Source: Candidatus Nomurabacteria bacterium
Lineage (GTDB): Bacteria > Patescibacteriota > Minisyncoccia > Phycocordibacterales > UBA918
Direction of reading: 5' to 3'
DNA: 64,000 nt
Assembly: GCA_020632135.1 (NCBI GenBank)
Contig: JACKGC010000001.1
Coordinates: 372,241 to 436,240, forward strand
Of this stretch, positions 3,237 through 52,699 are shown in pieces. A program made the translations under genes and the position numbers. Below the pieces are notes generated by a model, which worked only from the letters and a program-made list of their open reading frames with translations, had not been told where the DNA came from and searched no databases. Position 1 is the stretch's first letter. Every line of letters begins with the position of its first letter.

Positions 3237-3245
3237 AGGTATAAG

Positions 3246-3850: not shown

Positions 3851-3852
3851 TC

Positions 3853-4182
3853 ATGACAGTTGCTTACGATGATTTTGCAAAATTAGAGATCAAGATTGGC
3901 ACCATCACCGCCGTCGATGTGGTTGAGGGAGCTGATCGACTTCTGAAACTCACGGTCGATGTGGGGGAGAAAGAACCACGGCAGATCGTGTCTGGGATCC
4001 GAGAGTTTGTGTCTGATCCCGATGCGCTCGTGGGGCGACAGTGTCCGTTTTTGGTCAACCTTGAGTCACGTGCAATCCGAGGACTGGAGAGTCAGGGTAT
4101 GATCTTGGCCGCGGGAGATACTGAAACATTTACGCTTTTGCATCCTAGCGCGGCCGTACCACCAGGGACTACAGTACAATAG
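3853..4182 (+). CDS. tRNA-binding domain protein (CsaA/Trbp111-like OB fold)
   Basis: FAKLEIKIGTITAVDVVEGADRLLKLTVDVGEKEPRQIVSGI...ESQGMILAA. Confidence 0.8.
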   Translation: MTVAYDDFAKLEIKIGTITAVDVVEGADRLLKLTVDVGEKEPRQIVSGIREFVSDPDALVGRQCPFLVNLESRAIRGLESQGMILAAGDTETFTLLHPSAAVPPGTTVQ

Positions 4183-4188
4183 TGTGAC

Positions 4189-4800
4189 ATGAGTGTAGAG
4201 AACGATCTAAGGCAACAGGTTTCAGCAGTACTGGAGACCAGTACTGTTGCAAAGGCAAGGGAGATACTCAGCTCCCGCTCTGGCACGGTGATGATCGGTC
4301 TTATCTCATTCATCGAGTCAGCTTTGCCGATACCTATCCTCACTGACCCGTTTCTGGTGGCGGCGATCTTAGCCGACCGAACCCGAGCTGCTCGCTTAGT
4401 TTTAATAACACTGATCACCTCTGTACTTGGTGGGGTAGCCGCCTACTTCATGGCACTCTTTTTCTTGGAGTTCCTTCTTTCATTCCTCAGCCAAACAATG
4501 GTAGAGGAGTTTCATGAGTTGGCCAATGGTACAGGCTCAGGTACTGCGCTACTAACCTTAGTTGGGGCAGTGACCCCAGTGCCATATACCTTGGTGGCGT
4601 GGGCCATTGCGGTCATAAAGGGTAATTTCTGGGTGTTTGTGGCGGCTTCAGTAGTGGGGCGGGGATTTAGGTACGCAGTAGTTGGTTGGTCCACCTACCA
4701 TTTTGGTGCAACGGCATTACGCATTGCGCGCCGCTATATTGGTGTAACGTCGATCATTTTGGTCGTGCTTTTTGCTGCATTCATTTGGTACAAGATGTGA
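4189..4800 (+). CDS. DedA/YqaA-like integral membrane protein
   Basis: Polytopic. Contains the segments ESALPIPILTDPFLVAAIL and VTPVPYTLVAW. Confidence 0.5.
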   Translation: MSVENDLRQQVSAVLETSTVAKAREILSSRSGTVMIGLISFIESALPIPILTDPFLVAAILADRTRAARLVLITLITSVLGGVAAYFMALFFLEFLLSFLSQTMVEEFHELANGTGSGTALLTLVGAVTPVPYTLVAWAIAVIKGNFWVFVAASVVGRGFRYAVVGWSTYHFGATALRIARRYIGVTSIILVVLFAAFIWYKM

Positions 4801-4856
4801 GTTAGTATCTCGAAACTAGGTCAGCAACAGCGTATACTAGAGACATAGTAAAACGT

Positions 4857-5945
4857 ATGTCGGTTCTTTCTCGAGTCTTACCACCACCGAGTTTCCTCAC
4901 TATGCCTTGTGTGGGGGTTGATGTGTCAGACACGTCTCTTAAGTATGTCTCTCTCAAGCCAAACGTGCGGCCTGGTGTAGACCGCGTGATAAAGCAGTGG
5001 GGAGACATTTCGATCCCGAGCGGAACGGTGCAGCGCGGTCTTGTGAGTGATCCAAAGCAGCTCACCGCAGTCCTTAAAGAATTCAAGGCGCAGACCAAAG
5101 CCGAGTTTGTGCGCCTCTCACTACCAGAGGAGCGAGCCTACCTATTTGAGACAACCATCAAGCGAGATACACCGATCAAGGAGATCCGTGGAATGCTTGA
5201 GTTTCGGTTGGAGGAAAATGTGCCGATACCTTCTAAGGATGTCTATTTTGATTACGATATTTTACCCGGTGATCAGGAAAAAAAGACGGTACAGATCGCT
5301 GTGGCGGCCTACGCCAAAGAAACTATTCAGCAGTACTACGATGTTTGTATTGAAGCAGGTTTGCGTCCGGTGGCGTTTGAAGTTGAGGCGCAAGCAATGG
5401 CACGAGCGGTTATTCCCACTGACGTTAAAGGGGCAGTTATGTTGGTTGATTTTGGTAAGACGCGGACCGGTATTGGAATCGCGTATAAGGGCATGTTGCT
5501 CTATACCTCAACGGTAGATATTGGAGGCGATGTGTTGTCCCAGGCGCTGCGTCGGGTACTTGGAGATGCGGTCAGTGAGGGAGAGCTTACCAAACTGAAG
5601 AATACACAAGGTCTCGTTCGGTCGATCGAGTCATCGCACGTACATGAGGCACTTATTAATGCCACATCAGTCATCAAAGACGAACTGGCAACGCGCATGC
5701 AGTACTGGCATCTGCGTAATGGCAATAGTGCTGAGCGCCGGATCTCTTCGGTCATGTTGTGTGGTGGTAGCGCAAACCTTAAGGGGCTACCTGCCTACCT
5801 CACCGAAACGCTCGGTATACCCACGCTGCGAGGCAATGTGTGGGAGAACACCTTTTCACTTAAGCACACGGTCCCACCGATCGATCGTCGGCACTCCTTC
5901 GGGTATGCTACCGCGATTGGTTTGGCACTAAAGAATATTGTCTAG
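4857..5945 (+). CDS. pilM: Type IV pilus assembly protein PilM (actin-like ATPase fold)
   Basis: N-terminal SFL..VGVDVSDTSLKYVSL, and it sits upstream of pilN/pilO-like genes. Confidence 0.8.
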   Translation: MSVLSRVLPPPSFLTMPCVGVDVSDTSLKYVSLKPNVRPGVDRVIKQWGDISIPSGTVQRGLVSDPKQLTAVLKEFKAQTKAEFVRLSLPEERAYLFETTIKRDTPIKEIRGMLEFRLEENVPIPSKDVYFDYDILPGDQEKKTVQIAVAAYAKETIQQYYDVCIEAGLRPVAFEVEAQAMARAVIPTDVKGAVMLVDFGKTRTGIGIAYKGMLLYTSTVDIGGDVLSQALRRVLGDAVSEGELTKLKNTQGLVRSIESSHVHEALINATSVIKDELATRMQYWHLRNGNSAERRISSVMLCGGSANLKGLPAYLTETLGIPTLRGNVWENTFSLKHTVPPIDRRHSFGYATAIGLALKNIV

Positions 5946-5948
5946 CGT

Positions 5949-6497
5949 ATGATCAACCTCATTCCGCCAACAGCTAAGAAGGGAATCGTCTTCGAATACT
6001 GGGTTCGTGTCGTGACGGTCTGGTTGTATCTATGGTCAGCTGTGATGATCGTAGGTATTTGTATCACGCTTCCGACGTATGTGCTCATTAGCGTGCAAGC
6101 ATCAGTGCTCGAATCATCTGCCCAGGAAGCTTCTGAGATGGTGGCAGGATACGATGATGTATCACGGGCGCTGATGGCAGCTAACCAACAGGCCGCGGTG
6201 ATCGTGAAAGAGTCTCGGCTTGTATCGGTGTCTCAGTATTTGCAGCTATTTGAGTCACTGCAAGGTGCGGGCATTACAGTGACTGGTGTCCGATTAGATC
6301 GTACTGCCGACGGCTTGGCGCCAGCTGTGGTGACTGGTAAAGCCATCGACCGACAGACGCTCGCTGCGTTCCGTGATCGCTTAGTGGCACACGCACTGAT
6401 TGAGTTGGTCGACCTGCCGATAGCAAATCTTGCTCAAGATAAAGACATCACGTTCACGCTTACTGTCACTTTTGCTAATCCAACCGCAAACATATGA
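5949..6497 (+). CDS. pilN: PilN-like bitopic membrane protein
   Basis: MINLIPP start and a single TM helix. Follows pilM. Confidence 0.65.
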   Translation: MINLIPPTAKKGIVFEYWVRVVTVWLYLWSAVMIVGICITLPTYVLISVQASVLESSAQEASEMVAGYDDVSRALMAANQQAAVIVKESRLVSVSQYLQLFESLQGAGITVTGVRLDRTADGLAPAVVTGKAIDRQTLAAFRDRLVAHALIELVDLPIANLAQDKDITFTLTVTFANPTANI

Positions 6498-7009
6498 GTA
6501 ACAGCACCAAGAGAAACATAGTCCTTGCAGCAGTACTTATGATCGCCTCGATCGCTGCTTTCGGATTCATGGTGTACCAGGTCTTAGGGCAGGGTGAGCA
6601 GTTGAATGCGCTGGTTGCCAATCGGGATCGATACGATGCACAAAAAGACACCTACAATCAGCTGCAGCGACAAGCAGAAGAGACTCTTGCCGAGCGTCAG
6701 CAGTTGGAAGCGTATTTTTTGAAAAATGAAGGGGCGAGTATAGATTTTCTCAATGCTGTAGAGGGACTAGCGCCACAGATCGGGGTTGCTCTTGAGACTA
6801 CTGCGCTCACACTGCTCATTGAAGAGGATAAGACCAAATGGGTCAAGGCATCCTTTAAATTCAGCGGTTCGCGGGCGGCAGTGCAGCAATTCATTCAGTT
6901 ACTTGAGACGCTGCCGTATATACAGCGCATCTCAAGTGTTGACGTCGACGCCAAAAGCGCTACTGAGTGGCAAGCGGATGTTACTATGCAAGTACGGATC
7001 ATTGAGTAA
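6494..7009 (+). CDS. pilO: PilO-like bitopic membrane protein
   Basis: TM helix followed by a coiled coil, and a 4-nt overlap with pilN. Confidence 0.55.
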   Translation: MSNSTKRNIVLAAVLMIASIAAFGFMVYQVLGQGEQLNALVANRDRYDAQKDTYNQLQRQAEETLAERQQLEAYFLKNEGASIDFLNAVEGLAPQIGVALETTALTLLIEEDKTKWVKASFKFSGSRAAVQQFIQLLETLPYIQRISSVDVDAKSATEWQADVTMQVRIIE

Positions 7010-7014
7010 TACAT

Positions 7015-7482
7015 ATGGACAAGGGAAAGTTTCAAGACATTGCCAGCAAGATATTCAAGTCTTCGGAAGGGCTGCATAAACCGCGCATGATCTCACCTGG
7101 ACGAGAGTGGGCCATTGGTATTGTTGTCTCGGTCCTTATCGTATTGACCAGTGCATTATGGACCGTTCATACGTATGACCGGTTCAAGGACTCAACAATC
7201 AAGCAGACGACTCCAGTTGAGGAACAGGCAGTGGTATACAGAGAAAGTTTGGTTGATACTGCGTTGGGTATCTTCACGGAGCGTGCGCAGCGGCACGCCG
7301 CACTCAGTAGTCAACAGGTCGTGCTCCCGTCTTCTGATCTAGTCTTGCCACCCCAGGAAGAGGATGAGGTTTCAGCTGAAATTACTACCATACCACCACC
7401 AGACCAGCTCGAACCGATAGCAACAGAACCTGAGGAGGGTTCACCCACCGACGGCGAACGAGCAGCGGTGATCGTTGAATAA
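7015..7482 (+). CDS. Hypothetical bitopic membrane protein in the pil operon
   Basis: One TM helix (WAIGIVVSVLIVLTSALW) and an acidic, Pro-rich tail. Confidence 0.5.
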   Translation: MDKGKFQDIASKIFKSSEGLHKPRMISPGREWAIGIVVSVLIVLTSALWTVHTYDRFKDSTIKQTTPVEEQAVVYRESLVDTALGIFTERAQRHAALSSQQVVLPSSDLVLPPQEEDEVSAEITTIPPPDQLEPIATEPEEGSPTDGERAAVIVE

Positions 7483-7522
7483 AAGAGTAGTCAATGAAAA
7501 CTGGACCCTTGTCTGGTTTTTG

Positions 7523-7594
7523 TGCCCCCAGTAGGAATCGAACCCACATCAAGAGCTTAGAAGTCTCCTGCTCTATCCATTGAGCTATGGGGGC
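7523..7594 (-). tRNA. tRNA-Arg (anticodon TCT)
   Basis: GCCCCCATAGCTCAATGGATAGAGCAGGAGACTTCTAAGCTCTTGATGTGGGTTCGATTCCTACTGGGGGCA. Confidence 0.85.
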
Positions 7595-7757
7595 AAAAAA
7601 CGATCTGCAACACGATCATTTATTGAAAGCCATACTAGCGTAAAAAAGTGTTTCAGTCACCTTATTTTTCCGTACACCACGAACGTGCTGGTTTAATAGA
7701 CAGGCGCGTACAACTCATTCGAGTAAGGTTGTCATGCAAAAGTACATTATCGTGCTA

Positions 7758-7803
7758 CCAATCAGCCGGCTCGAAGACGTCAGTCTTCGAGCCGGCTGAT
7801 TGG
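7758..7803. repeat. Perfect 21-bp inverted repeat with a 4-nt loop
   Basis: CCAATCAGCCGGCTCGAAGAC-gtca-GTCTTCGAGCCGGCTGATTGG. It abuts the distal copy of the tRNA-Val 3' end. Confidence 0.8.
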
Positions 7804-7804
7804 T

Positions 7805-7826
7805 GAGCGATGAGAGACTTGGTCAC
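7805..7826 (-). repeat. Copy of the tRNA-Val 3' end (att-like); distal boundary of the AT-rich islet
   Basis: gagcGATGAGAGACTTGgtcac matches the tRNA-Val 3' end GCGCGATGAGAGACTTGaac (9557-). Confidence 0.7.
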
Positions 7827-7991
7827 AAATAAATTTTCTACGAAAATTTTTCGCGACCCCACCTCACTCGTTCGTCGCAAGCTCCTCACATCGTTCCGGC
7901 CTTCAAGTCTCTACGGAAGCAAAACTGTTTGCTTCCTCATCGCGCACGAACAAAAACCGCCCAAGCAAAGCTTGAGCTGGTTTTTGTACTC

Positions 7992-8020
7992 GTGCGCCAT
8001 GTGGGACGACGTTAGAACTT
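7992..8020 (+). repeat. Cassette-junction motif copy A; contains GTTAGAACT at 8011-8019
   Basis: GTGCGCCATGTGGGACGACGTTAGAACTT. Confidence 0.75.
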
Positions 8021-8078
8021 TTCTTCAGGAAGAAGTAGAAAAGGAAAACACCTACGGGGGTAGGGTTTCCTGTAGGTG

Positions 8079-8378
8079 TTAACTGGTCTGTATACTGGAA
8101 TGGTGATATAAGCTGGCAAGGAAGGCCCACCGGTCTTCTCGTTTTGTTCCTGGGGGAAGATAGAAGAAAGCTTCCTTGTTTGTTACCCCGTCGAGGAACC
8201 AATCAATTATATCTACCCCTAGATATTTTTTCGCAAGGCGTTTAAACATACGCTTACTGGGGAATTGCACTGAACAGGAATTTTCTACCTCTGGATGTAT
8301 ATACACGTGGTAAATAACCCCAATCTCGTAGCCTCCGTTAAGGGGACTCATTAACAACTCATTCACTCTTATACTCAT
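8079..8378 (-). CDS. Hypothetical protein in an AT-rich cassette
   Basis: Start at MSIRVNELL with a GGGAG RBS 6 nt upstream. The hairpin AACACCTAC...GTAGGTGTT plus a T-tract follows the stop. Confidence 0.5.
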   Translation of the reverse strand: MSIRVNELLMSPLNGGYEIGVIYHVYIHPEVENSCSVQFPSKRMFKRLAKKYLGVDIIDWFLDGVTNKEAFFYLPPGTKREDRWAFLASLYHHSSIQTS

Positions 8379-8453
8379 AACAATCTCCCGCAGATTGGTC
8401 AATGAACTCTTTACAACAAACAATGCACCGTTTCAGGTGCATTGTCAAGTTTT

Positions 8454-8482
8454 GTGCACTATGTGGGACGATGTTAGAACTT
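8454..8482 (+). repeat. Cassette-junction motif copy B; contains GTTAGAACT at 8473-8481
   Basis: GTGCACTATGTGGGACGATGTTAGAACTT. Confidence 0.75.
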
Positions 8483-8485
8483 GTT

Positions 8486-9217
8486 TTATTGAACAGGTTT
8501 CTCAAAAACAAACAATGTACCAATAAATCCATTGTCTTCAACATCCTGTTTTTCGAACAAGTTAAAACCTGCTTCTGCAAATATGTCCAAGTAAAATTGC
8601 TCGTCCCTATTGTAATCCACCACTGTTCCAATGCCAGGTATGGCACTGTAGTGGAGAGTTTCTTTGTAGTCATTATTGTTGTGTGTAATGTTCTGTCTTT
8701 CAATAAATAAATCAGTTTCAGTGTGAAGTTTGTTTTCTATATATTCCTGATTTGCAACAGCAATAATCGCTTTACCTCTAGGCTTCAACATTTTAAATAT
8801 TTTTGAAGCTATTTCCGGAAATTCTTCTGACAAGAAATGCGGAAAAACATATATAGCGGTAACAAAATCGAAAGTAGAGTTAGTATTGAAGTCTTGAAAA
8901 GAATTGTCATGAAGCTGAACGGAGATATTTTTAGAAGTAACATTTTTAATACTTGATGCGTTCTCAAAATTAACTCGTGAGGGTTCGCATCCTTCGAGCA
9001 GCACATTATCAAATTCACCTCCAAGCTGTTCAGCAACTCTTTTTAGAAAAAAACCAATTCCAAATCCTATGTCAAAAATTGAAATACTTTTTGCATCATG
9101 CACCAGGAAATACTTATTAATGATCAAGTCATTGATTTTTGAATTAATACCTGTCTGTTCCTGATTCTTCCAATCAATTTTGTTGTATTGCAAATAGAAA
9201 AAATCTTTATTTTTCAT
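8486..9217 (-). CDS. Class I SAM-dependent methyltransferase in an AT-rich cassette
   Basis: Motif I is IFDIGFGIGFF. Composition is visibly AT-rich compared with the flanks. Confidence 0.75.
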   Translation of the reverse strand: MKNKDFFYLQYNKIDWKNQEQTGINSKINDLIINKYFLVHDAKSISIFDIGFGIGFFLKRVAEQLGGEFDNVLLEGCEPSRVNFENASSIKNVTSKNISVQLHDNSFQDFNTNSTFDFVTAIYVFPHFLSEEFPEIASKIFKMLKPRGKAIIAVANQEYIENKLHTETDLFIERQNITHNNNDYKETLHYSAIPGIGTVVDYNRDEQFYLDIFAEAGFNLFEKQDVEDNGFIGTLFVFEKPVQ

Positions 9218-9295
9218 AAATATATCCTAACACCAATGTTCATTTAAGCCAGAGACTTTACAGTTTGTGGGTTGCTGATTAAAGCTAAAACTCGT

Positions 9296-9319
9296 TGTGC
9301 GCGATGAGAGACTTGGTCA
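9296..9319 (-). repeat. Copy of the tRNA-Val 3' end (att-like), proximal
   Basis: GTGCGCGATGAGAGACTTGgtcac. 19 nt are identical to the tRNA-Val 3' end, and it shares the GTCAC extension with the 7805 copy. Confidence 0.75.
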
Positions 9320-9426
9320 CCTTCGCATCAACATTTTGTTCGACTTTCAGTCTCCAAAATATTGTGCTACGCGACCCCGGCGCTCGAGTCGTGCTCCCTT
9401 CGGTCCGCGCGATATATTCGCTTTTT

Positions 9427-9480
9427 CGACCAGATTTTTAATGACTGAAAGGAATATAAAAATGGAAGTGCCCTTGTGGT
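9427..9480 (+). repeat. Copy of the junction-element block (GACCAGATT...TATAAAAATGGAAGTGCCCTTGTGGTG)
   Basis: Aligns to the R3 element at 40561-40612. Confidence 0.7.
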
Positions 9481-9514
9481 GCAAGTCTCTCCTCACTCTG
9501 CTAAATCTGAGACA

Positions 9515-9548
9515 CAATAACCCCCAGTCTATGCAGACTGGGGGTTAT
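9515..9548 (-). terminator. 15-bp hairpin immediately 3' of tRNA-Val
   Basis: AATAACCCCCAGTCT-atgc-AGACTGGGGGTTATT. Confidence 0.55.
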
Positions 9549-9556
9549 TGGTCTAG

Positions 9557-9629
9557 TGCGCGATGAGAGACTTGAACTCCCGACCTTCTCGGTGTAAACG
9601 AGCTGCTCTACCAACTGAGCTAATCGCGC
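9557..9629 (-). tRNA. tRNA-Val (anticodon TAC)
   Basis: GCGCGATTAGCTCAGTTGGTAGAGCAGCTCGTTTACACCGAGAAGGTCGGGAGTTCAAGTCTCTCATCGCGCA. Confidence 0.9.
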
Positions 9630-9664
9630 AAATATTAATGTAGGCACTATCGTACCCAATTTTC

Positions 9665-9699
9665 GGAAAAAAACAAGCCGATCCTGGGTGGATCGGCTG
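9665..9699 (-). terminator. Terminator of the small minus-strand ORF
   Basis: AGCCGATCC/GGATCGGCT stem followed by TGTTTTTTT on the minus strand. Confidence 0.6.
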
Positions 9700-9734
9700 T
9701 TAGTACTTTGACCTGGTCGCTAATGCTCCGGTGC

Positions 9735-9908
9735 CTAGTCTGTCTTAAGGTACCGAGCTCGCTGGTCTATCGGATGTCGCGGGGTTGTACGAAGACTTGG
9801 TTGGATGCAACGATGGATCACCAGGTTTGGTAGCGAGCCACGATCTTCAATCGGCCGAGAGAAATTATCGATCTCTGCCCGGGGTTTGGATAGTTCAGTG
9901 GTGGTCAT
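9735..9908 (-). CDS. Small hypothetical protein (57 aa), absent from the ORF track
   Basis: GGAG RBS, then ATG. Sequence is MTTTELSKPRAEIDNFSRPIEDRGSLPNLVIHRCIQPSLRTTPRHPIDQRARYLKTD. A terminator lies downstream. Confidence 0.35.
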   Translation of the reverse strand: MTTTELSKPRAEIDNFSRPIEDRGSLPNLVIHRCIQPSLRTTPRHPIDQRARYLKTD

Positions 9909-9981
9909 GGGTTTCTCCTTTGAATGAGACCGGTAATGTTATAACTCTCTTTTTTCTGTCTGACAAGGTATACTGCTCTCC

Positions 9982-10254
9982 ATGATACAAATGCAGGCGA
10001 TCATCTCCGGGAAGGTGCAAGGTGTGGCGTATCGTGCGTACGTGCAGGAGTCTGCCACAGAGCTCGAGTTGGTTGGGTATGTGTACAACCAGTCAGACGG
10101 AAGTGTGCTCGTGGTGGCTCAAGGTGCAGGAGAAGTACTCAAGGAATTTGTGGAGTACTTGCACGAGGGTTCACTTATGGCGGTAGTTGAGAGCGTGGCG
10201 GTCGAATGGGGAAGTGTTGGGAAAACCTACGATGAGTTTTCAGTGTTGCACTAA
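9982..10254 (+). CDS. acyP: Acylphosphatase
   Basis: ISGKVQGVAYRAYV...GYVYNQSDGSVLVVAQG. TATACT-N7-ATG lies upstream. Confidence 0.9.
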   Translation: MIQMQAIISGKVQGVAYRAYVQESATELELVGYVYNQSDGSVLVVAQGAGEVLKEFVEYLHEGSLMAVVESVAVEWGSVGKTYDEFSVLH

Positions 10255-10257
10255 GGT

Positions 10258-10968
10258 ATGAACAAAACAACAAACGTACAGTGCATCGGGTTTATCATGG
10301 ATGGTAATCGCCGGTGGGCGAAAGAGCAGGGGCTGCTGACCTATGAGGGCCACCGCAAGGGCGGAGAAGTGTTAGCTGAATCGATACGATGGGTACGTGA
10401 CGCAGCCATTCCACATGCGGTGTACTACGCGTTCTCAACGGAGAACTGGAAGCGGAGCGAAGCGGAGGTGGGCTACTTGATGGATCTGTTTCGAGAATGG
10501 TTGCAGAGGATTGAAAATCGATTTGTTACTACTATTGAAGATGAAACGGAGGATCCCGTCAAAATCCGTATTGTTGGCAGACGAGAAGATTTTGCGCCAG
10601 ATATTGTTGCACAGATGAATCAACTTGAAGCTAAGAGTCAGGGGCATGCAGATGCCAAGACAACCATTTGGATTGCGCTCTCATACGGCGGCCGGGCAGA
10701 GATCGTAGCAGCGGTTAACGAGGCGGTCGCGCGCGGTGAGTACGTAACCGAAGAGAGTTTCGAAAAGCTTCTATGGACCGCTGATCTGCCTGATCCAGAT
10801 ATTATTGTGCGGCCAGGTGGGGAACATCGCCTTTCTAATTTCATGACCTGGCGTTCGGTCTATAGTGAACTCATGTTTCTCGACACGCACTGGCCGGCTT
10901 TGACTAAACAAGACTTTGACGACATACTCACACAATATGAACAGCGAGAGCGACGAAAAGGGAAATAA
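10258..10968 (+). CDS. uppS: Undecaprenyl-diphosphate synthase
   Basis: GFIMDGNRRWA, ALSYGGRAEI and RPGGEHRLSNFMTWRSVYSEL. Confidence 0.95.
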   Translation: MNKTTNVQCIGFIMDGNRRWAKEQGLLTYEGHRKGGEVLAESIRWVRDAAIPHAVYYAFSTENWKRSEAEVGYLMDLFREWLQRIENRFVTTIEDETEDPVKIRIVGRREDFAPDIVAQMNQLEAKSQGHADAKTTIWIALSYGGRAEIVAAVNEAVARGEYVTEESFEKLLWTADLPDPDIIVRPGGEHRLSNFMTWRSVYSELMFLDTHWPALTKQDFDDILTQYEQRERRKGK

Positions 10969-11002
10969 GGGAAAGGAAACAGGCGCTGCGCCCACTGAGC
11001 CA

Positions 11003-11731
11003 ATGATCTTATTTGAAGATGATGATGTCTTAGTGATCAATAAACCATACGGCTGGCTGACTCACGAAGACACTAAAACCAGTGCACCGACGGTGGTGGA
11101 GTGGTTTCTTAGTCGGCTGCCTTCGGCAGCCGGCGTCGGCGAACCCGGCTACTCACCCCAGGGTGTCGAGCTTGATCGCTCTGGCGTAGTACACCGCCTC
11201 GACCGCGAGACATCAGGGGTGCTCATCCTCGCTAAGACTCAGGCTGCGTACCAGCAGCTCAAGCAGCAGTTTAAGGACCATAACGTACACAAAGAATATC
11301 GTGCGCTGGTGTATGGTCGACTCAATGACCGTTGGGGCACCATCAACCGACCAATCGGCCGCAGCGCCAAGGATTCACGTCGACGGAGTGCTGAGCGGGG
11401 TGCTAAAGGTCAGTTACGCGAAGCGATCACTGACTTTGAACGGATTGGAGTAGGGGAATTCCAAGATGAGCCGTTTTCGTATGTAAAGCTCATGCCGAAG
11501 ACCGGTCGCACCCACCAACTCCGCGTGCACCTACGTGCCATTGACCGTCCAATTGTGATGGATGGACTCTATGCCGCCCATAAGATCGAGCGGTCAAATA
11601 ACCTTGGTCTTGAGCGTCTCGCGCTCCATGCGCATGTGTTAGAGCTGGCACTGCGAAGTGGGGAGACACACCGTTTCATTGCGCCGGTGCCACTGGCGTT
11701 TGAACAGGCCGCAGATCGCATTGCAGAGTAG
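11003..11731 (+). CDS. RluA-family pseudouridine synthase; start uncertain (10916, 10937 or 11003)
   Basis: ILFEDDDVLVINKPYGWLTH and HRLDRETSGVLILAKT. The 11003 start avoids overlap with uppS. Confidence 0.8.
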   Translation: MILFEDDDVLVINKPYGWLTHEDTKTSAPTVVEWFLSRLPSAAGVGEPGYSPQGVELDRSGVVHRLDRETSGVLILAKTQAAYQQLKQQFKDHNVHKEYRALVYGRLNDRWGTINRPIGRSAKDSRRRSAERGAKGQLREAITDFERIGVGEFQDEPFSYVKLMPKTGRTHQLRVHLRAIDRPIVMDGLYAAHKIERSNNLGLERLALHAHVLELALRSGETHRFIAPVPLAFEQAADRIAE

Positions 11732-11807
11732 GTGAGATTGTGGTAGATTGTGGCACGTTTTTAGGGACGTCTTTTATCGACGCAAGATTAATTTATTCAA
11801 TATATTT

Positions 11808-12425
11808 ATGAAAGCAGTACTGGCTGGGGTGAATGTGTCACCCGTCAATATGGAAGAACGCAAAAGTCTTGGCATCAAGGCTGGCGATACGGTGCGCGTG
11901 CACCAGAAGATCGTGGATGAGAAGGGGAAGACTCGCATCCAGGTCTTTGAGGGTCTCGTATTGGCCCGCAAGCATGGTGATGAGCCAGGCGCTACCTTTA
12001 CTGTACGTAAAGTAGCGAGCGGTGTTGGTGTCGAGAAGATCTTCCCGCTCTACTCTCCACTGATTGACAAGCTCGAGATCGTGAAGCGTGCCAAGGTGCG
12101 CCGCAGCAAGCTCTACTACATCCGTGAGAAGGTGAACCGTGAGATCAAGCGTCAGATGCGTCGTATGAGCCTCGTGTCTATGTCAACAGAGTCTGAAGCT
12201 GAAACAGCCGCTCGCGCTGCCGAGGAGGCTAAGAAGGCCGAGGAAGAGGCAGCTAAAGCTGCTAAAGCTGCTGAAGCAGAAGCTGCCAAGAAGGCTGAGG
12301 AGGTGGCTAAGGCTGCAGAGGCAGCCGCAGCAGAAGCGCCAGCTGAAGATGCAGCTACTGAAGCCTCAGCAGAGGAAGTTCCTACTGCCGAGACTGAAGT
12401 AAAGGAGGAGGAGAAAAAGGACTAG
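11808..12425 (+). CDS. rplS: Ribosomal protein L19 with a long Ala/Glu/Lys-rich C-terminal extension
   Basis: [35 protein letters not shown]...[11 protein letters not shown], followed by the tail [37 protein letters not shown]... Confidence 0.9.
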
Positions 12426-12437
12426 GTGAATACAGAA

Positions 12438-12467
12438 AGCGGCGGCCCGAAGGGCCGCCGCTTTTTT
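12438..12467 (+). terminator. Terminator after rplS (bidirectional position)
   Basis: AGCGGCGGCCC-gaa-GGGCCGCCGCT followed by TTTTTT. Confidence 0.8.
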
Positions 12468-12479
12468 ATATGTCACTCA

Positions 12480-14393
12480 CTAATTCACAATGATCTTGGT
12501 TGGGGTACGGTAGCTGCTTTGTGGCAGCGCGTTCCAGCTCTGATCTGGTGCAGCGTCAGTATCGTTATAGTTGATACTGAGCAGTTGCATACGAGCAGTG
12601 GTGTTTGGTACACCAGGTAGGTGGGTCACGGTCAAGGTCACTGTCTCGGTGCTACCTTCTGGAATGTAGAAGTAGTTACCTTCCTCCTCAGCGCTTGAGG
12701 TTACGACCGGCGTGCCGGAAGCAGCAAGTGCATTGCCTAGGGAATCTTGCAGTTGGTAGTCAACACCGTCTGTACCAACTGGAATGTAGACATCTTGCCC
12801 AAAGGCGGCTACCGCAACACGGATCACGAAGGTGACATAGTCGTTGTTTGAGCCGCTCACTGAGGTCACTTCAGCTGTAGCGGTTGGGCTCTCGACGTCA
12901 GTACCCTTGGTGTAGAGCAGGTGTGTCTCTCCGGTGACCGCACCTTGGAGCTGCTCGCTATCGAGATCGTCACCACCCTCAGCGTCGATATCATCAGCGT
13001 CAATATGACCGACGATCGAGATGCCCTCAAACTCTTCATTGAGTGAACGGAAGTCGATCTCGACTGAGGCGGTGACGCGGTCGCCAGCGTCTATCTGCAA
13101 ATCGCCGTAATCAAACGAGAACGTGATGATGCCAGTAGCACCGTCGGTGACATGTTCATCAGTGTAAGTTTCGCCGTCGATGATGATGCGGGCATTGCGA
13201 ACGAAATCGCTCAGTGTGCCGCTGCTGACAGTGAATTGGATGGGGAGTTCGTAGATGTCGATATCGTTCTCACTGTCGTCAGTATCGAGATCAAAAGCGA
13301 ATACCTCCAAGTAGCCAGAGTTTCGATCATCCTTCACGCGTAGGACTGAAGCATCAGGATCATCGTCAGACCGTCGCGTAATGATCTCGTCAGAGGCGCC
13401 GGCTTCATCGATATTGAGGGTCACTGCGTCAGCGGTGTCGCCGATGTAAAGTGCAGCTCGGTCTGCATCAAGAGCGCGAATGCCCTCGTCGGGAATATAG
13501 GCGGTCCAGATTTCTCCGTTGTCAGTTCCACGGACGCCATTTTGCACATCGACGCGAACGGTGAGTTCTATTTCACGGCCTTCACGCATACGCCAGTCTA
13601 GTCCCGAGAGGCGAATTGTATAGTCGCCGTCAGTTGGCGAGTCCTCAATCCAGTTGTTTCGGTTTGAGGCATCAACACGAGCGAGTCGGGTGTTGCTATT
13701 CCAGATCGATACTTCCTCGAAGGTGTCCCATGGGTCATCTTCATCGTTGGCATTGTCTGGGGTAAAGCCCACCTCAACGCGATTGAGTCGTGCATCACCG
13801 TCTTCGACTCGGAACGAGACCTCCATGATCTCAGCATTACCGTCGCCTTCTTCTAAGTCAGTGTTATTACCATCTTTTACTGTGAAGCGCTCTAGTGAAG
13901 CTTCGCCGCTGAGTGGCGGCTCAGGCTCAGGCTTTGGTTCAGGAGTTGGAGTGGGGGTTGGAGTGGGGGGTACCGTACAGAGGCTCTGTGCCTTTGCCAT
14001 GGTTAGAGGACCATAGTTGTAGCCGAGCGCCGGGCTAATACCTTGTGTCGCCTGGAATTGTTGCAGTGCAGTTTGCGTTTGGGCACCAAAGTAACCAGTT
14101 GCGCCAGCGGGAATTACATGCCCCCGACTCATCAAGAATTGTTGCAGTACGGCCACTTGGCTACTGCGCTCACCATATGCAATATGTTGCTGTGGGTAGA
14201 CACAGACTGTTCCGCTCTGCATAGCCAAAAGTTGCGCCTGCAACGTGGCTATCTGTGTGAGTAAGCTTTGAATTTGAGCCTGCAGTTCTGCGTGGGTTGC
14301 AGCCTGGACTCTTGGGGCAGGGAGGGTGATACTTACGAGCAAAAGCGCGATGATACCACCAACCATGCCCCGATATAGGGTGCTTATTTTCAT
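12480..14393 (-). CDS. Secreted protein with a coiled coil, peptidoglycan-binding-like domain, PT/PE linker and large acidic C-terminal domain
   Basis: Signal/TM segment GGIIALLLVSITLPAPRVQA. PG_binding-like segment VAVLQQFLMSRGHVIPAGATGYFGAQTQTALQQFQ. Linker PPTPTPTPTPEPKPEPEPP. Confidence 0.6.
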   Translation of the reverse strand: MKISTLYRGMVGGIIALLLVSITLPAPRVQAATHAELQAQIQSLLTQIATLQAQLLAMQSGTVCVYPQQHIAYGERSSQVAVLQQFLMSRGHVIPAGATGYFGAQTQTALQQFQATQGISPALGYNYGPLTMAKAQSLCTVPPTPTPTPTPEPKPEPEPPLSGEASLERFTVKDGNNTDLEEGDGNAEIMEVSFRVEDGDARLNRVEVGFTPDNANDEDDPWDTFEEVSIWNSNTRLARVDASNRNNWIEDSPTDGDYTIRLSGLDWRMREGREIELTVRVDVQNGVRGTDNGEIWTAYIPDEGIRALDADRAALYIGDTADAVTLNIDEAGASDEIITRRSDDDPDASVLRVKDDRNSGYLEVFAFDLDTDDSENDIDIYELPIQFTVSSGTLSDFVRNARIIIDGETYTDEHVTDGATGIITFSFDYGDLQIDAGDRVTASVEIDFRSLNEEFEGISIVGHIDADDIDAEGGDDLDSEQLQGAVTGETHLLYTKGTDVESPTATAEVTSVSGSNNDYVTFVIRVAVAAFGQDVYIPVGTDGVDYQLQDSLGNALAASGTPVVTSSAEEEGNYFYIPEGSTETVTLTVTHLPGVPNTTARMQLLSINYNDTDAAPDQSWNALPQSSYRTPTKIIVN

Positions 14394-14521
14394 AGTGGTT
14401 AATTTTTTAAGTACTTCGAATAAGTGTAGGTATTACCTCCGCCTACACTTACTATGACGTATGGAAGTTTGGAAGCTTACAAAAGGCAGCACACGGCCGT
14501 ATGTGGTACGCTGGGGACATT

Positions 14522-15370
14522 ATGAAACCTAGTACAAAACTGCAAGCATTGATTGAAGTGGTTGAAACTGCTGGCCAGTTGGCTCGCGAGTACTTTTACC
14601 AACACGAAGCGTTCGCTGAAAAAGAGGATCGTTCGGTCGTAACTAAAATAGATACCGAGACCGAAGCGGCGTTGCGCGCTTTTATTGCTGCACACTTTCC
14701 GCACGATACGATCGTTGGTGAGGAAGGTGCGGATGTGACAGGTGATTCAGGGTATGTATGGTACATCGACCCGATTGATGGTACTGAGAATTTTATTCGT
14801 AAGATACCGCTCTTTAGTATTACCGCCACTCGGCTTGGTCCGGGGCCGGAAGGTTCGTGTGCGGTAGTTCACAATCCCATCTCACGGCAAACCTTCGCTT
14901 CATTCATGGAAGCAGGGGTGTACGAGAATCGTACTTTAGCCACGCGTGCCGCTACCGCGATCGGTGGTCGGCGAGCCATACACGTGCTTTCATCCTCGTA
15001 TGAGCCATGGGTGAAGCCGGCGAAACATCGGCTGGTACATGAGCTTGGTGCGCGCTACGGACGGAGCGCCTCGTTTAGTGCAGGTCTCTTGGAGCTGGCG
15101 TACGTGGCAGCCGGTCGGCTTGATGGCGTGATCGCTTTGCATAACAACCCGTGGGACACGGCGGCAGGTTTGTATCTTAATAAGTCAGCCGGCTCCCGGA
15201 TCAGCCTGTTTGTCGATGGTGAGTGGCAGGGTTACCATGGCGCTATTAGTGCACTGTATGGCGCATCGAAAAGAGAACGTCCTATACTACTAGTGTCTGA
15301 CCCGGTCATGCACGACGAGTTGTGTGCGTTTGTGGGTGACCCACGGCAGTGGGCAGTCGATACAGCTTGA
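14522..15370 (+). CDS. Inositol monophosphatase family protein
   Basis: WYIDPIDGTENF and NPWDTAAG motifs. Confidence 0.85.
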   Translation: MKPSTKLQALIEVVETAGQLAREYFYQHEAFAEKEDRSVVTKIDTETEAALRAFIAAHFPHDTIVGEEGADVTGDSGYVWYIDPIDGTENFIRKIPLFSITATRLGPGPEGSCAVVHNPISRQTFASFMEAGVYENRTLATRAATAIGGRRAIHVLSSSYEPWVKPAKHRLVHELGARYGRSASFSAGLLELAYVAAGRLDGVIALHNNPWDTAAGLYLNKSAGSRISLFVDGEWQGYHGAISALYGASKRERPILLVSDPVMHDELCAFVGDPRQWAVDTA

Positions 15371-15418
15371 ATTATCAGTATGTATAAGGCATAATGGCCC
15401 GACCTTAGAAAGGTAACT

Positions 15419-15502
15419 GTCCAGGTGGCGAAATTGGTAGACGCGCTACCTTGAGGGGGTAGTGGGAGTTATCCCGTGCTGGTTCAACTCCAGTCCTGGA
15501 CA
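15419..15502 (+). tRNA. tRNA-Leu (anticodon GAG)
   Basis: Acceptor GTCCAGG/CCTGGAC, anticodon stem CTACC/GGTAG, anticodon loop TT-GAG-GG, long variable arm. Confidence 0.9.
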
Positions 15503-46942: not shown

Positions 46943-47018
46943 TGGGGCGGCTACCGGGAATCGAACCCGAACTTTCGGTACCACAAACCGATGCACTAAC
47001 CGTTATACTATAGCCGCC
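46943..47018 (-). tRNA. tRNA-His (anticodon GTG) with G-1 and encoded CCA
   Basis: GGCGGCTATAGTATAACGGTTAGTGCATCGGTTTGTGGTACCGAAAGTTCGGGTTCGATTCCCGGTAGCCGCCCCA. Confidence 0.9.
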
Positions 47019-49080: not shown

Positions 49081-49387
49081 GAATCGAGCGCCTGGCATCG
49101 ATAAAAACGTTATTTATCGGTTTCATGTCCGCTGTCTCATAATTCGCAAGGTGGTAAGATGGAGTAACCACACGAGAAGATATCGTGTGTCGGAGGTAAG
49201 ACACACGCTCCCCCTCTATAACAGAGAGCCGAGCTTTAACGCCACAGCAAAAGAGCGGTGTGTTTGTCGCGACCTTTCGATTGCGCTTAGACCTAATTGA
49301 CCGTCGAAAGACGGTGTACTCTTCCACCAATTATGTCTGATCGCAATTACGTAGTTACTCAAGTAAAAGTCAATTCCCAAGATTGCT

Positions 49388-50701
49388 ATGGAAATTCAAA
49401 GTATCCGAAAGCGTGATGGTTCGGTTCAGCCATTTGATATCACCAAGATTGAAAATGCTATCGCCAAGGCGTTAGCTGAGACGGGTGAAGGCGACCGTGT
49501 CACCGCCAAAGATGTCGCGGAATTAGCTCATGAAAAAGTGGTCGCGATGTGCGTTCGAGCAGGCACGGCGTCAGATGATGATCCGCTTTCTCAAAAATGT
49601 ATCGATGGTAACCCTGCGGTGGAAGAGATCCAAGACCTCGTGGAGCAAGCGCTGATGGAGCGGGATCATTACGAGACCGCCAAGGCCTACATCATCTACC
49701 GCAATGAGCGTAAGAAATTACGTGAGCGAGATATTTTTAAGAAGCGACAAAACCTCAAGCCATATGAGTACCCAGAGCTGTATGAATACGTAGACGCAAT
49801 TCGGCACTCCTACTGGATTCACACTGAATTCAATTACACCTCCGACATCCAAGACTTCCACATTAATGTAAATGACGTGGAGCGCACCGCGATCAAGAAC
49901 TCCATGCTCGCGATCGCCCAGATCGAAGTGGCCGTAAAGACCTTCTGGGGTGATATCTACAAGAAGCTTCCTAAGCCAGAGATCGGCGCGGTCGGGGCTA
50001 CCTTTGCTGAGTCTGAGGTGCGACACACTGATGCCTACTCACACCTCCTCGAGATCCTTGGTCTCAATGATGAGTTTGCAAAGATCAAAGACATCCCGGT
50101 CATTCAAGAGCGCATGAATTACCTTGAGAAGGTGATCGAGCTTGCCAAGACCCAGGAAGACCGTGAGTACTCCCACGCCATCATGCTTTTTGCACTGTTT
50201 GTGGAGCACGTATCGCTCTTCTCACAGTTCCTCATCATGATGAGCTTCAACAAGCACAAGAATCTCTTCAAGGGCATCTCAAACGCAGTGGAAGCTACTT
50301 CCAAAGAAGAGCAGATCCATGGCATGTTCGGTATTGATGTCATCAATATCATCAAGAAGGAACATCCTGAGTGGTTTGATGAGAAGTGCCATAACTTCAT
50401 CATCAAGGCGTGTGAAGAGGCATACGAATCAGAAGCAAAGATCATCGACTGGATCTACGAAGCCGGCGAGCTTGATTTCTTGCCAGCAGCTAATGTGAAG
50501 GAGTTTGTGAAACATCGCTTTAATAACTCACTCGCCTCAATCGGTCTACCACGTATCTTCGAGGTTAGCGAGGCACTCTTAGAAGAAACAGACTGGTTCG
50601 ATAATGAGGTGATCGCCACCAAGCACGTTGATTTCTTCCACAAGCGTTCCATTAACTACAACAAGCGCTCGGCTTCGGTGACTAGTGACGACTTGTTCTA
50701 A
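49388..50701 (+). CDS. nrdB: Ribonucleotide reductase small (radical-generating) subunit with an N-terminal ATP-cone
   Basis: ATP-cone IRKRDGSVQPFDITKIENAI...AKAYIIYRNERK, then ferritin-like FAESEVRH and SKEEQIHG. Confidence 0.85.
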   Translation: MEIQSIRKRDGSVQPFDITKIENAIAKALAETGEGDRVTAKDVAELAHEKVVAMCVRAGTASDDDPLSQKCIDGNPAVEEIQDLVEQALMERDHYETAKAYIIYRNERKKLRERDIFKKRQNLKPYEYPELYEYVDAIRHSYWIHTEFNYTSDIQDFHINVNDVERTAIKNSMLAIAQIEVAVKTFWGDIYKKLPKPEIGAVGATFAESEVRHTDAYSHLLEILGLNDEFAKIKDIPVIQERMNYLEKVIELAKTQEDREYSHAIMLFALFVEHVSLFSQFLIMMSFNKHKNLFKGISNAVEATSKEEQIHGMFGIDVINIIKKEHPEWFDEKCHNFIIKACEEAYESEAKIIDWIYEAGELDFLPAANVKEFVKHRFNNSLASIGLPRIFEVSEALLEETDWFDNEVIATKHVDFFHKRSINYNKRSASVTSDDLF

Positions 50702-50709
50702 AAAGAGCG

Positions 50710-50804
50710 GAGCTTGTGAGACTTATTTCGCACACGCTCCGATGTCCACAGATCCGCTTAAGCATTCAATCCCCGCGGACGCTCGAAATAAGTCCCACAA
50801 GCTC
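50710..50804 (+). repeat. Hairpin element E1 (21-bp stem and conserved core)
   Basis: GAGCTTGTGAGACTTATTTCG-[CACACGCTCCGATGTCCACAGATCCGCTTAAGCATTCAATCCCCGCGGACGCT]-CGAAATAAGTCCCACAAGCTC. Confidence 0.75.
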
Positions 50805-50865
50805 TGCTTGGACAGAGACTGAGGTATACTGTCGCAACTTACTAACGAATAATTTCTGAACATCT

Positions 50866-52548
50866 ATGGAATCCTGGTACTGGCTGAATGAAAATAGTCG
50901 CGCATTCTTAGACCGCGGATATTTGTCTCCGGGACAAACTGCTGAGGAGCGCATTCGCGTCATTGCGGATACGGCTGAGCAGTATCTTGGTCGTAAAGGC
51001 TTCTCAGACAAATTCTACGAATACATGAGTAAAGGCTGGATCTCACTGGCGTCGCCGGTGTGGTCTAACTTCGGCATCAAGAAGGGGCTGCCGATCAGTT
51101 GTTTTGGTTCATATGTATCCGACAACATGGGCAGTATTCTCCATACGCACGCCGAAGTGGGCATGATGAGTAAGTATGGTGGTGGCTGTTCTGGCTACTT
51201 TGGTGAGCTGCGTGCCCGTGGTGCTGAGATCGCCTCAGACAACGGTCACTCCTCTGGCTCAGTGCACTTTATGCAGCTATTTGAAACGCTGGTTGATGTA
51301 GTGTCGCAGGGTTCGGTGCGTCGCGGCCACTTCTCACCGTATCTACCGGCTGAGCACAACGACATCATGGAGTTTCTCGATATTGGTACCGAAGGCAACC
51401 CGATCCAAAAGCTCACGCATGGTGTAACAGTGGGGGACGAATGGATGGAATCCATGATCGAAGGTGATGAGGCTAAGCGCAAGATCTGGGCGCGCATCAT
51501 CCAACGCCGTGGCGAAATGGGGTATCCGTATATTATGTTCTCTGACACGGCCAACAAGGCAACGGTTGATGTGTACAAGGATAACGACCTGACCATCTAC
51601 GCTTCCAACATGTGCAGCGAGATCATGCTGCCAAGCAAGGACGACTGGTCGTTTGTGTGCTGTCTCTCATCAGTCAATCTCTTGCATTACGAGGACTGGA
51701 AGGACACTGATCTCATCGAGACCATGATCGGGTTCCTTGATGCGGTGATGGAAGATTTCATTGTGAAACTTGAAGCGTTGCGTGATCATGAACAAAAAGA
51801 AAAGCGCCAAGCATTTCGGTTTATGGAGCGGGCATACAACTTCGCCAAGGCTAACCGTGCGCTTGGTTTGGGTGTTCTTGGATATCACTCATTGCTCCAA
51901 TCAAAAAACCTTGCGTTTGAAAGTGATGAAGCGGCAGCGCTGAATCGTGAGGTGTTTAAGCTTATGCAAGAAAAGGCCGATGCAGCAACCAAGGAGTTGG
52001 CCAAAGAGCTGGGTGAACCAGAGGTACTCAAGGGTTATGGCCGTCGCAATACCACTACCATGGCGATTGCACCAACCACTTCCTCCGCCTTCATTCTCGG
52101 GCAGGTGAGTCAGGGCATTGAGCCGATCTGGAGTAACTGTTACACCAAGGATGTGGCCAAGATGAAGGTGACGATCAAGAACCCGAATCTCCAAGCTCTC
52201 TTGGCAGAGAAAGGGAGGGACGACAAGATGACTTGGGACAGTATCCGTGACAACGACGGCTCTGTGCAGCACCTTGAGTGTCTTACTGATGAAGAGAAGG
52301 CGGTCTACCGCACGTTTGCCGAGATCGATCAAGAGAAGATCATAGACCAAGCGGGAGAACGACAGGCCTACATCGATCAGGGGCAATCGCTCAACATCAT
52401 GGTGGCACCTGACACCCCAGTAAAGGATATTAACGCACTCTACATCAAGGCGTGGAAGCAAGGTGTAAAGAGCTTGTATTATCAGCACTCGATGAACGCG
52501 GCCCAGCAGATGGTTCGCAAAAAGCTGGCAGAGAAGGAAGGGAAATAG
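50866..52548 (+). CDS. nrdA: Ribonucleotide reductase catalytic subunit; short form without an ATP-cone
   Basis: ASNMCSEIMLP and the C-terminal region, 560 aa. Confidence 0.85.
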   Translation: MESWYWLNENSRAFLDRGYLSPGQTAEERIRVIADTAEQYLGRKGFSDKFYEYMSKGWISLASPVWSNFGIKKGLPISCFGSYVSDNMGSILHTHAEVGMMSKYGGGCSGYFGELRARGAEIASDNGHSSGSVHFMQLFETLVDVVSQGSVRRGHFSPYLPAEHNDIMEFLDIGTEGNPIQKLTHGVTVGDEWMESMIEGDEAKRKIWARIIQRRGEMGYPYIMFSDTANKATVDVYKDNDLTIYASNMCSEIMLPSKDDWSFVCCLSSVNLLHYEDWKDTDLIETMIGFLDAVMEDFIVKLEALRDHEQKEKRQAFRFMERAYNFAKANRALGLGVLGYHSLLQSKNLAFESDEAAALNREVFKLMQEKADAATKELAKELGEPEVLKGYGRRNTTTMAIAPTTSSAFILGQVSQGIEPIWSNCYTKDVAKMKVTIKNPNLQALLAEKGRDDKMTWDSIRDNDGSVQHLECLTDEEKAVYRTFAEIDQEKIIDQAGERQAYIDQGQSLNIMVAPDTPVKDINALYIKAWKQGVKSLYYQHSMNAAQQMVRKKLAEKEGK

Positions 52549-52550
52549 CA

Positions 52551-52591
52551 AAAAACCAGCGCGGGGCCCGAAGGGCCCCGCGCTGGTTTTG
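52551..52591 (+). terminator. Terminator after nrdA
   Basis: CCAGCGCGGGGCCC-gaa-GGGCCCCGCGCTGG followed by TTTT. Confidence 0.85.
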
Positions 52592-52606
52592 CGTTGGGCA
52601 GCGAGC

Positions 52607-52699
52607 ACCGCCAGACACCAATTTTTCACACGCTCCGATGTTCACAGACCAGCTTAAGCACGCAACCCCCGCGGATGTTCAAAATTAGTGTCTGGCGGT
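52607..52699 (+). repeat. Hairpin element E2 (19-bp stem, same core as E1)
   Basis: ACCGCCAGACACCAATTTT-[tCACACGCTCCGATGTTCACAGACCAGCTTAAGCACGCAACCCCCGCGGATGTTC]-AAAATTAGTGTCTGGCGGT followed by TTTTT. Confidence 0.75.

Follow-up and report, generated by a model that had tools for sequence, protein, structure and literature searches.

Two hairpin elements, E1 and E2, lie on the same (+) strand as direct repeats around the ribonucleotide reductase (RNR) gene nrdA, in the 64,000-nt stretch of DNA analysed here (the window). According to the best-supported reading of our results, both are members of a multi-copy family of intergenic hairpin repeats that occurs, among the matches listed, only in Paceibacteria-type Patescibacteria (candidate phyla radiation, CPR), and this family is a new, previously undescribed one of interspersed palindromic repeats of Paceibacteria. 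We count at least about 19 distinct copies, spread over at least 10 genomes or metagenomes. They share one folded structure with two constrained sequence boxes (box L and box R), they tend to follow the orientation of the neighbouring genes, and they show a high turnover at orthologous sites.

Within the window, the 15-mer that forms box L (CACACGCTCCGATGT) has two exact matches, one in each element, and no others in the 64 kb, while the composite pattern GCTTAAGC-N(3-9)-CCCGCGG has two matches against a chance expectation of 0.03. The cores of E1 and E2 align by blastn over 49 nt with 87.8% identity. Each core is enclosed by complementary arms, over 25 nt in E1 (92% complementarity; Table 1) and over 24 nt in E2 (88%, between 52607-52630 and 52676-52699), whereas the arms of E1 are only 41-47% identical to those of E2, which is background. 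When the folding of both elements was compared with shuffled sequences, E1 gave z = -7.7 and E2 z = -4.7, and none of 200 shuffles equalled either. The first-pass annotation had described a shared core with identical first 15 nt, long stems that differ in sequence and still pair, and directly oriented copies, one after nrdB and the other after the nrdA terminator; all of this was confirmed.

Further copies were obtained from two sources. For the first, 76 nrd loci were taken from species-representative genomes, together with further nrd loci reached by exact protein look-up; for the second, metagenome contigs were scanned with a two-box pattern (counts given below are among the matches listed). 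Amid many chance matches, the scan returned at least 13 further distinct copies with the full architecture. As the pattern fixed 18 box positions, these are invariant by construction in the 13 copies so found; the copies independent of the pattern are E1, E2, those of loci L017, L061 and L286, and the second copy of L195, a locus with two copies in tandem. The element is carried by four of about 55 related Paceibacteria-type nrd loci, i.e. the window itself, L017 (in the gap between nrdB and nrdA), L286/L287 (in that gap, inverted) and L061 (after the nrdA terminator; the same sequence as L281). All copies are intergenic, and 15 of the roughly 19 adjoin unrelated genes in loci that encode neither NrdA nor NrdB. 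Neighbours include genes for ribosomal protein L25, a sigma-70 factor, elongation factor G, uracil-DNA glycosylase, sortase and large surface proteins. The metagenomes come, among other sources, from Hainich groundwater and Tara Oceans surface water, and the copies of L171, L197 and L281 belong to one metagenome-assembled genome (MAG).

Comparison with Rfam 15 gave nothing credible over E1 or E2 at E <= 10, and only tRNAs reached the gathering threshold in the window. Four other copies matched only microRNA-precursor models, with 20-30 bits against thresholds of 85-140. Phage look-ups and literature text searches likewise gave no match to the element, in line with the first-pass annotation, which could assign it to no familiar motif. 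In viral contigs, the exact 15-mer and a looser two-box pattern returned chance matches only, none of them with the remaining core or the flanking stems. Among these IMG/VR matches, two pairs of related viral contigs, L113/L115 (about 530-590) and L141/L160, carry their own repeated CGCTCCGATG-containing motifs beside G-rich or C-rich runs, in an architecture unrelated to the element.

Two copies less than 2 kb apart around nrdA, together with those of L017 and L286 in the nrdB-nrdA gap and that of L061 after nrdA, could suggest a processing or stability element specific to nrd, or a recent local duplication around nrdA. We find this hardly credible, since unrelated genes adjoin 15 of the copies, the element is missing from about 50 related nrd loci (in most of them the gap between nrdB and nrdA is 12-50 nt) and the arms of E1 and E2 are unrelated to each other. 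The link to nrd implied by the first-pass annotation was therefore not upheld, and the recent duplication that it had named as the finding that would count against it is contradicted by homologues in many other genomes. Its suggestion that the direct repeats could drive deletion or duplication of nrdA likewise found no support, as nrdA is missing or doubled in no related locus.

The anatomy of the element was derived from an alignment of 19 copies (A5), with slid partners and 500 shuffles as controls. One unit of about 95-105 nt consists of a stem (P1), an internal loop, a second helix (P2) and an apical region. P1 is 15-25 bp long, and 16 of its 17 aligned pairs show double-sided changes. Its cells are paired in 87.6% of cases, compared to 35-45% in the slid controls, and its covariation score of 0.487 (0.10-0.14 in the slid controls) was reached by none of the 500 shuffles. 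These figures support the earlier claim of a folded nucleic acid rather than a transposon with terminal inverted repeats. The inner 9 bp of P1 (ACATATTTT/AAAATATGT) are semi-conserved, while its outer part is essentially locus-specific. Between P1 and P2 lies a conserved asymmetric internal loop (CACA / CUC). P2 itself, a helix of 6 bp, is almost invariant, has a bulged C (CG-c-UCCG / CGGA-CG) and is paired in 99.1% of its cells. Six cells of P2 depart from Watson-Crick pairing. In five of them, two in L286 and one each in E2, L214 and L204, at column 85, a C-to-U change retains a G.U pair on the core strand; the remaining one is a single C.A in L257.

The apical region, about 35 nt, differs across genomes and is nearly uniform among the copies of one genome. 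Its length from ATG to CCGCGGA is constant at 27-29 nt with a variable sequence, and a short helix in it (P3, UGU/GCA, longer in some copies) is weakly supported, 65.8% of its cells being paired. The six pattern-independent copies carry 0-3 box substitutions each; the 11 bases of box L that the scan pattern had fixed (ACGCTCCGATG) are identical in five of them, and L286 has one C-to-T change.

The orientation of the copies is biased. In co-directional intergenic regions ten copies run with the genes and two (L257 and L286) against them, and five copies begin 4-11 nt past the stop codon of a same-strand gene. L286, inverted with respect to its flanking genes, has accumulated box substitutions. 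This, together with the orientation bias and the G.U-preserving changes in P2, is evidence for the core strand being the one that folds, either as RNA or as single-stranded DNA. A tie between orientation and replication strand was considered and rejected, because core orientation does not track local GC skew (positive on the core strand in ten loci, negative in seven). No consistent -35/-10 pair or spacing was seen for a promoter in or just after the element. The cores and their borders contain no sigma-70-like site, and manual inspection of 17 copies revealed none either. The genes downstream are served by promoters of their own, located at variable distances, and a T run follows the element only in E2.

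Some simple functions were also considered and set aside. A riboswitch was rejected, since the genes downstream have no function in common. When the arms and the mid-core were considered as guides to positions elsewhere in the window, only 9-11-mers at chance level were found. CCGCGG is neither avoided nor enriched as a restriction site (14 sites in the window, 15.4 expected). The C-rich core (35% C, 22% G) would fit a Rho-utilisation (rut) site, for which the invariant boxes are unexpected.

We propose, tentatively, that the element acts at the RNA level in sense transcripts, with the boxes and P2 as a recognition platform and with gene conversion between the cores of one genome. Copies, usually placed just 3' of a same-strand gene, would be carried on the sense transcript as a 3'-untranslated, intercistronic or read-through segment, which folds into a long hairpin. 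The stem could then stop 3' exonucleases, as a barrier, or be processed, as a substrate of an RNase III-type enzyme, and the module formed by box L, box R and P2 may be recognised by a putative conserved host factor. Gene conversion between copies, for which the conserved boxes might supply the homology, would keep the cores of a genome alike.

Several observations speak against this proposal. The invariance of the boxes is partly a matter of ascertainment, since the metagenome pattern required them. For E2 and the L281 copy, which are preceded by a strong intrinsic terminator and followed by the promoter of the next gene, transcription could come from read-through only. The mismatches in P1 show no excess of G.U (10 G.U, 15 A.C and 25 others), and in 14 of 17 copies the more stable fold is that of the opposite strand. 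From these last two points it follows that P1 could be maintained by a strand-neutral DNA process, such as arm-to-arm correction of the palindrome. They would fit as well a small RNA gene on the strand opposite the core, antisense to the flanking genes, where the minimum free energy (MFE) folds contain 71 G.U pairs (36 on the core strand) as the A.C mismatches of the stem become G.U. Such a gene is very improbable to us: five of the six non-Watson-Crick cells of P2 would be A.C on that strand, neither promoter nor terminator was seen there, and the difference in stability is expected from the C-rich core alone. For this latter reason, folding energy was rejected as a means to choose the strand.

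The comparison of orthologous sites informs on how the element evolves. E1 and the L017 copy are orthologous, as they occupy the same site and have alignable arms with compensatory changes. They agree in 29 of 30 box positions, in 15 of 28 mid-core positions and in 10-11 of 17 arm positions, so that mid-core and arms have diverged to a similar degree. Within a genome, the mid-core identity is 0.79-0.86 (E1/E2 and L171/L197/L281) and that of the arms 0.41-0.71. This likeness of cores between unlike arms points to cores that evolve in concert within a genome, probably by gene conversion or recent copying.

At orthologous sites the element was found present, absent, inverted or deleted. Element-free relatives show no palindrome at the nrdB-nrdA site. 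For this reason, insertion of the core into a pre-existing hairpin or terminator was rejected, and the whole hairpin is the unit gained or lost. In L284, each of the two sites has kept only the outer 3' arm, and the junction shows a TGA microhomology; we read this locus as the remnant of a deletion, with loss through microhomology. Judged by gain, loss through microhomology, tandem duplication and inversion at its loci, the unit behaves as an interspersed palindromic repeat and stands outside nrd regulation. When 18 copies were aligned at their hairpin boundaries, the flanks showed neither a target-site duplication nor a common motif.

Two side observations touch on this turnover. Downstream of the copy in L197 (1179-1300), a segment made up of the 3' arm and some 25 nt of flank (AAAATATGTAACAAGRGACAG..GCGTCCATTCRATGC) occurs in about 2.3 tandem repeats, which suggests slippage or repeated partial copying on the 3' side of the element. 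Besides, the nrdB-nrdA spacers of lineages with a present or past element in that gap contain a -10-like segment, GGTATACTG / GAGTACAGTG (window 50809-50865; L017 3928-4000; L284 1700-1774), missing from relatives with a short spacer of 30-40 nt. It may be a secondary nrdA promoter gained along with the insertion.

Inversion deserves separate comment. In L286/L287 the covariance model detects the element between nrdB and nrdA, with 55.5 bits on the opposite (minus) strand; the first 17 nt of its mid-core are those of L017 (17/17), and three transitions are seen in its boxes. The E2 site of L294 is occupied by a hairpin with a 17-bp stem and a loop of about 50 nt without a recognisable core. 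The covariance model matches this hairpin in the stem alone, and its reverse complement is by eye faintly similar to the core ends, so it may be an inverted, decayed copy or a second family of the same architecture. The perfect 17-bp stem of this hairpin (L294 4229-4317, after nrdA) is AGCCGGCCGGTTGCTCT / AGAGCAACCGGCCGGCT, and its loop sequence TGTGCGTAGCACGTGTGAGCG, unlike the E core, is common to L284 (remnant 3505-3550). These two sites could be taken to indicate a small invertible DNA switch, the arms being the inverted repeats between which a 55-nt core flips. We give this little credence. Orientation, which differs between related species (L017 and L286), always agrees across independent assemblies of one locus (five of L195, three of L017, two of L286 and two of L237). 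Moreover, no promoter is detectable in the core, the arm sequences are unconserved, and classical recombinase synapsis needs a spacer longer than 55 nt.

The same turnover, with its tandem, partial and inverted copies and its deletion remnants, together with the patchy distribution, would be natural for a purely selfish, non-autonomous DNA element without host function. Such an element would form a hairpin in single-stranded DNA, its boxes being recognised or cleaved by a trans-encoded enzyme, for instance an HUH-type transposase or a recombinase, and its arms being kept paired through palindrome correction by template switching. The two copies outside obvious transcription units, between a terminator and the next promoter, and the lack of a G.U-over-A.C bias in P1 also fit this possibility, and the likeness of cores within a genome is expected after recent spread as well as after gene conversion. 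We regard it as the main and a serious rival, somewhat less probable than the RNA-level role proposed above. Neither target-site duplications nor a conserved flank motif accompany the copies, and the arms, which would be the termini, are unconserved. No transposase-like open reading frame (ORF) was noticed among the ORFs beside the copies or in the Pfam annotations of the nrd loci, a comparison made without a dedicated family scan. Also, the boxes are conserved at 29 of 30 positions between orthologues that are otherwise 54-65% identical, and orientation follows the neighbouring genes (10:2) and not local GC skew.

The family shows the broad features of interspersed palindromic repeats: the units are non-coding, multi-copy, dispersed and hairpin-forming, and their presence is polymorphic at orthologous sites. 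It differs from the known groups in what is conserved. Rickettsia palindromic elements (RPE), REP/BIME (repetitive extragenic palindromes and the mosaic elements built from them), ERIC (enterobacterial repetitive intergenic consensus), Correia-type repeats and integron attC sites conserve arms or stem bases, whereas the present family conserves an asymmetric centre while the arms drift and remain paired. RPE are about 100-150 nt long, conserved over their full length including the arms, and often located inside genes. Our family is similar to them as a set of long-hairpin units without coding capacity, dispersed in many copies in a small genome and patchy between relatives; unlike them, it limits conservation to the asymmetric core, has outer arms peculiar to each locus and was seen in intergenic positions only. 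REP, of 20-40 nt, have conserved stems and depend on RAYT transposases for their mobility, ERIC (also IRU) is a conserved imperfect palindrome of 127 bp, and the stem-loops of REP/BIME and ERIC stabilise upstream mRNA. With these repeats the family shares the intergenic location, often just 3' of genes in the transcribed orientation, the tandem or clustered copies and the variable presence. They lack, however, the combination of an invariant loop module of about 55 nt with variable arms, and in our copies the unit is about 100 nt with unconserved stems instead of a 20-40 nt palindrome with a conserved stem and 5' tetranucleotide.

In miniature inverted-repeat transposable elements (MITEs), the terminal inverted repeats are conserved and the target site is duplicated. 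Similarly to MITEs such as the Neisseria Correia element, the present repeat is short and non-coding, would form a hairpin RNA if transcribed, possibly a substrate of RNase III, and may affect the expression of its neighbours. Nonetheless, the mean arm identity between copies is only 0.34-0.40, and no target-site duplication was seen in the flanks of the 18 copies. attC sites, of 57-141 nt, have a conserved stem base (RYYYAAC / GTTRRRY) and a variable centre. They superficially resemble our element as imperfect hairpins with poorly conserved, mismatched or bulged stems, placed right after ORFs in co-oriented direct copies that bracket genes. In our family the conservation is instead central and the stem bases are variable; no R-box consensus was found at the stem bases, no array or integrase in the loci, and no tyrosine recombinase in the Pfam annotations precomputed for the nrd loci. 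Intrinsic terminators have a GC-rich stem, a loop of 3-8 nt and a U-tract; the loop is here about 55 nt, and E2 is alone in being followed by a T run. As regards invertons, no internal promoter was found in the 17 copies inspected.

The arrangement of a variable, covarying closing helix around a small conserved core is also known from self-cleaving ribozymes and other motif classes in Rfam, unlike which the element is matched by no covariance model at E <= 10 beyond the generic microRNA-hairpin models far below threshold. A new autonomous structured RNA, for example a self-cleaving ribozyme or a protein scaffold, would place the tertiary fold in P2, the junction and the apical core, with P1 as a variable closing stem. 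Invariant nucleotides in junctions and a bulged helix are typical of such RNAs, and many bacterial ribozymes are multi-copy and intergenic, as is the element; the G.U-preserving changes in P2 on the core strand only and the absence of an Rfam match would agree with this too. We judge it decidedly unlikely, because no covariation is seen within the core, where P3 is paired in only 65.8% of cells, a P1 of 20 bp is unnecessary for such folds and two copies are probably untranscribed. A box C/D-like kink-turn (GAUG / CGGA) was tried as well; it leaves a C-stem of just 2 bp with a 4-nt bulge and is speculation only.

A more speculative variant, which we think improbable, is that box L, P2, the apical region and box R together form a functional RNA of a new class, for instance self-cleaving or protein-recruiting, that moves or is copied between locus-specific hairpins as a "loop cassette". 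If true, this would account for a mid-core that goes with the genome and arms that go with the locus, and it would be a CPR-specific way to equip many unrelated operons with one RNA module, in 3' or intercistronic position.

Table 1. Features of E1, E2 and their gene context in the window.
Feature	Position	Strand	Remarks
E1 hairpin	50706-50808	+	First-pass span 50710-50804; outer pairing reaches 50706
E1 5' arm of P1	50706-50730	+	Inverted repeat I1 and MFE fold; first-pass arm of 21 nt was 50710-50730; orthologous to the L017 arm, with compensatory changes between the two
E1 box L, CACACGCTCCGATGT	50731-50745	+	Exact match in E2; P2 5' strand is C50735-G50736 plus U50738-G50741, C50737 bulged
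E1 variable mid-core (27 nt)	50746-50772	+	Includes GCTTAAGCA and semi-conserved RGCAY; identity 79% to E2, 54% to the orthologous L017 copy
E1 box R, CCGCGGACGCTC	50773-50784	+	P2 3' strand is C50776-A50779 plus C50780-G50781
E1 3' arm of P1	50784-50808	+	Inverted repeat and MFE fold; outer part CCACAAGC still recognisable in relatives L286 and L284
E2 hairpin	52607-52699	+
E2 5' arm of P1	52607-52626	+	Inverted repeat I3 and fold
E2 core	52627-52680	+	Box L 52627-52641, mid-core 52642-52668, box R 52669-52680 (CCGCGGATGTTC); C-to-T at 52676 turns a P2 G-C pair into G.U
E2 3' arm of P1	52681-52699	+	Followed by TTTTTGCGT
nrdB (ATP-cone fused to RNR small subunit)	49388-50701	+	ORF; Pfam families on orthologues; context, outside the element
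nrdA, between E1 and E2	50866-52548	+	ORF; context, outside the element
nrdA intrinsic terminator	52552-52590		18-bp GC-rich hairpin (I7) with T or A runs on both sides

E1 starts 4-8 nt past the nrdB stop codon (50701), and the nrdA terminator lies between nrdA and E2. Directly 3' of E2, TTTTTGCGT overlaps the -35-like hexamer of a downstream PNPOx-like gene, whose TACAAT -10 box is located 7 nt ahead of the ATG and is kept in L284 and L294. The NrdA protein of the window matches a Nomurabacteria RNR alpha protein with 100% identity, and its homologues at 84-91% identity, thousands in number, come from MAGs of Paceibacteria, Kaiserbacteria and Parcubacteria. By these protein matches, the window is assigned to a Paceibacteria/Nomurabacteria-type CPR (Patescibacteria) genome.

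The first-pass annotation had also reported a third trace of the core start at 49201-49211. This did not hold: the 11-mer, ACACACGCTCC, is real but is part of the nrd leader, which also occurs in element-free relatives. It sits in the 5' leader of about 220 nt upstream of nrdB, in the region 49150-49387 (+), after an extended -10-like TGGTAAGAT (49152-49160). Conservation of the leader extends to at least 24 related loci, many of them without the hairpin element, and the 11-mer is an invariant part of this leader. The leader contains a chain of mutually exclusive hairpins (CACACGA/TCGTGTG, CGTGTGTC-GGAGGTAA-GACACACG and GACACAC/GGTGTGT) and a long-range helix between 49280-49299 and 49327-49347. 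In the predicted structure, 14 of 24 pairs show compensatory changes across 24 Paceibacteria loci, mostly in the long-range helix. With no match in Rfam at E <= 10, the leader is possibly a separate, new cis-regulatory RNA of the RNR operon. It shares a 10-11-mer with box L.

Elsewhere in the window, six tRNA genes lie on both strands, starting at 2293, 3162, 7523, 9557, 15419 and 46946 (span 2293-15502 plus 46946-47017). Several of them are followed by perfect terminator-like hairpins of 16-22 bp, for example at 7757-7804, 3240-3282 and 9515-9550.

CPR/Patescibacteria genomes are small, streamlined and almost unstudied by experiment, and their non-coding repertoire is essentially unknown. In this respect, the element accounts for the expanded nrdB-nrdA spacer in a few lineages and removes a false lead to nrd regulation, and the covariance model obtained in this work can be used to survey complete CPR genomes. 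What distinguishes the family is a core under strong, orientation-dependent constraint and homogenised within genomes, enclosed by arms that evolve freely and yet stay paired. The element is thus either a new RNA module used by the host or a new style of selfish element.

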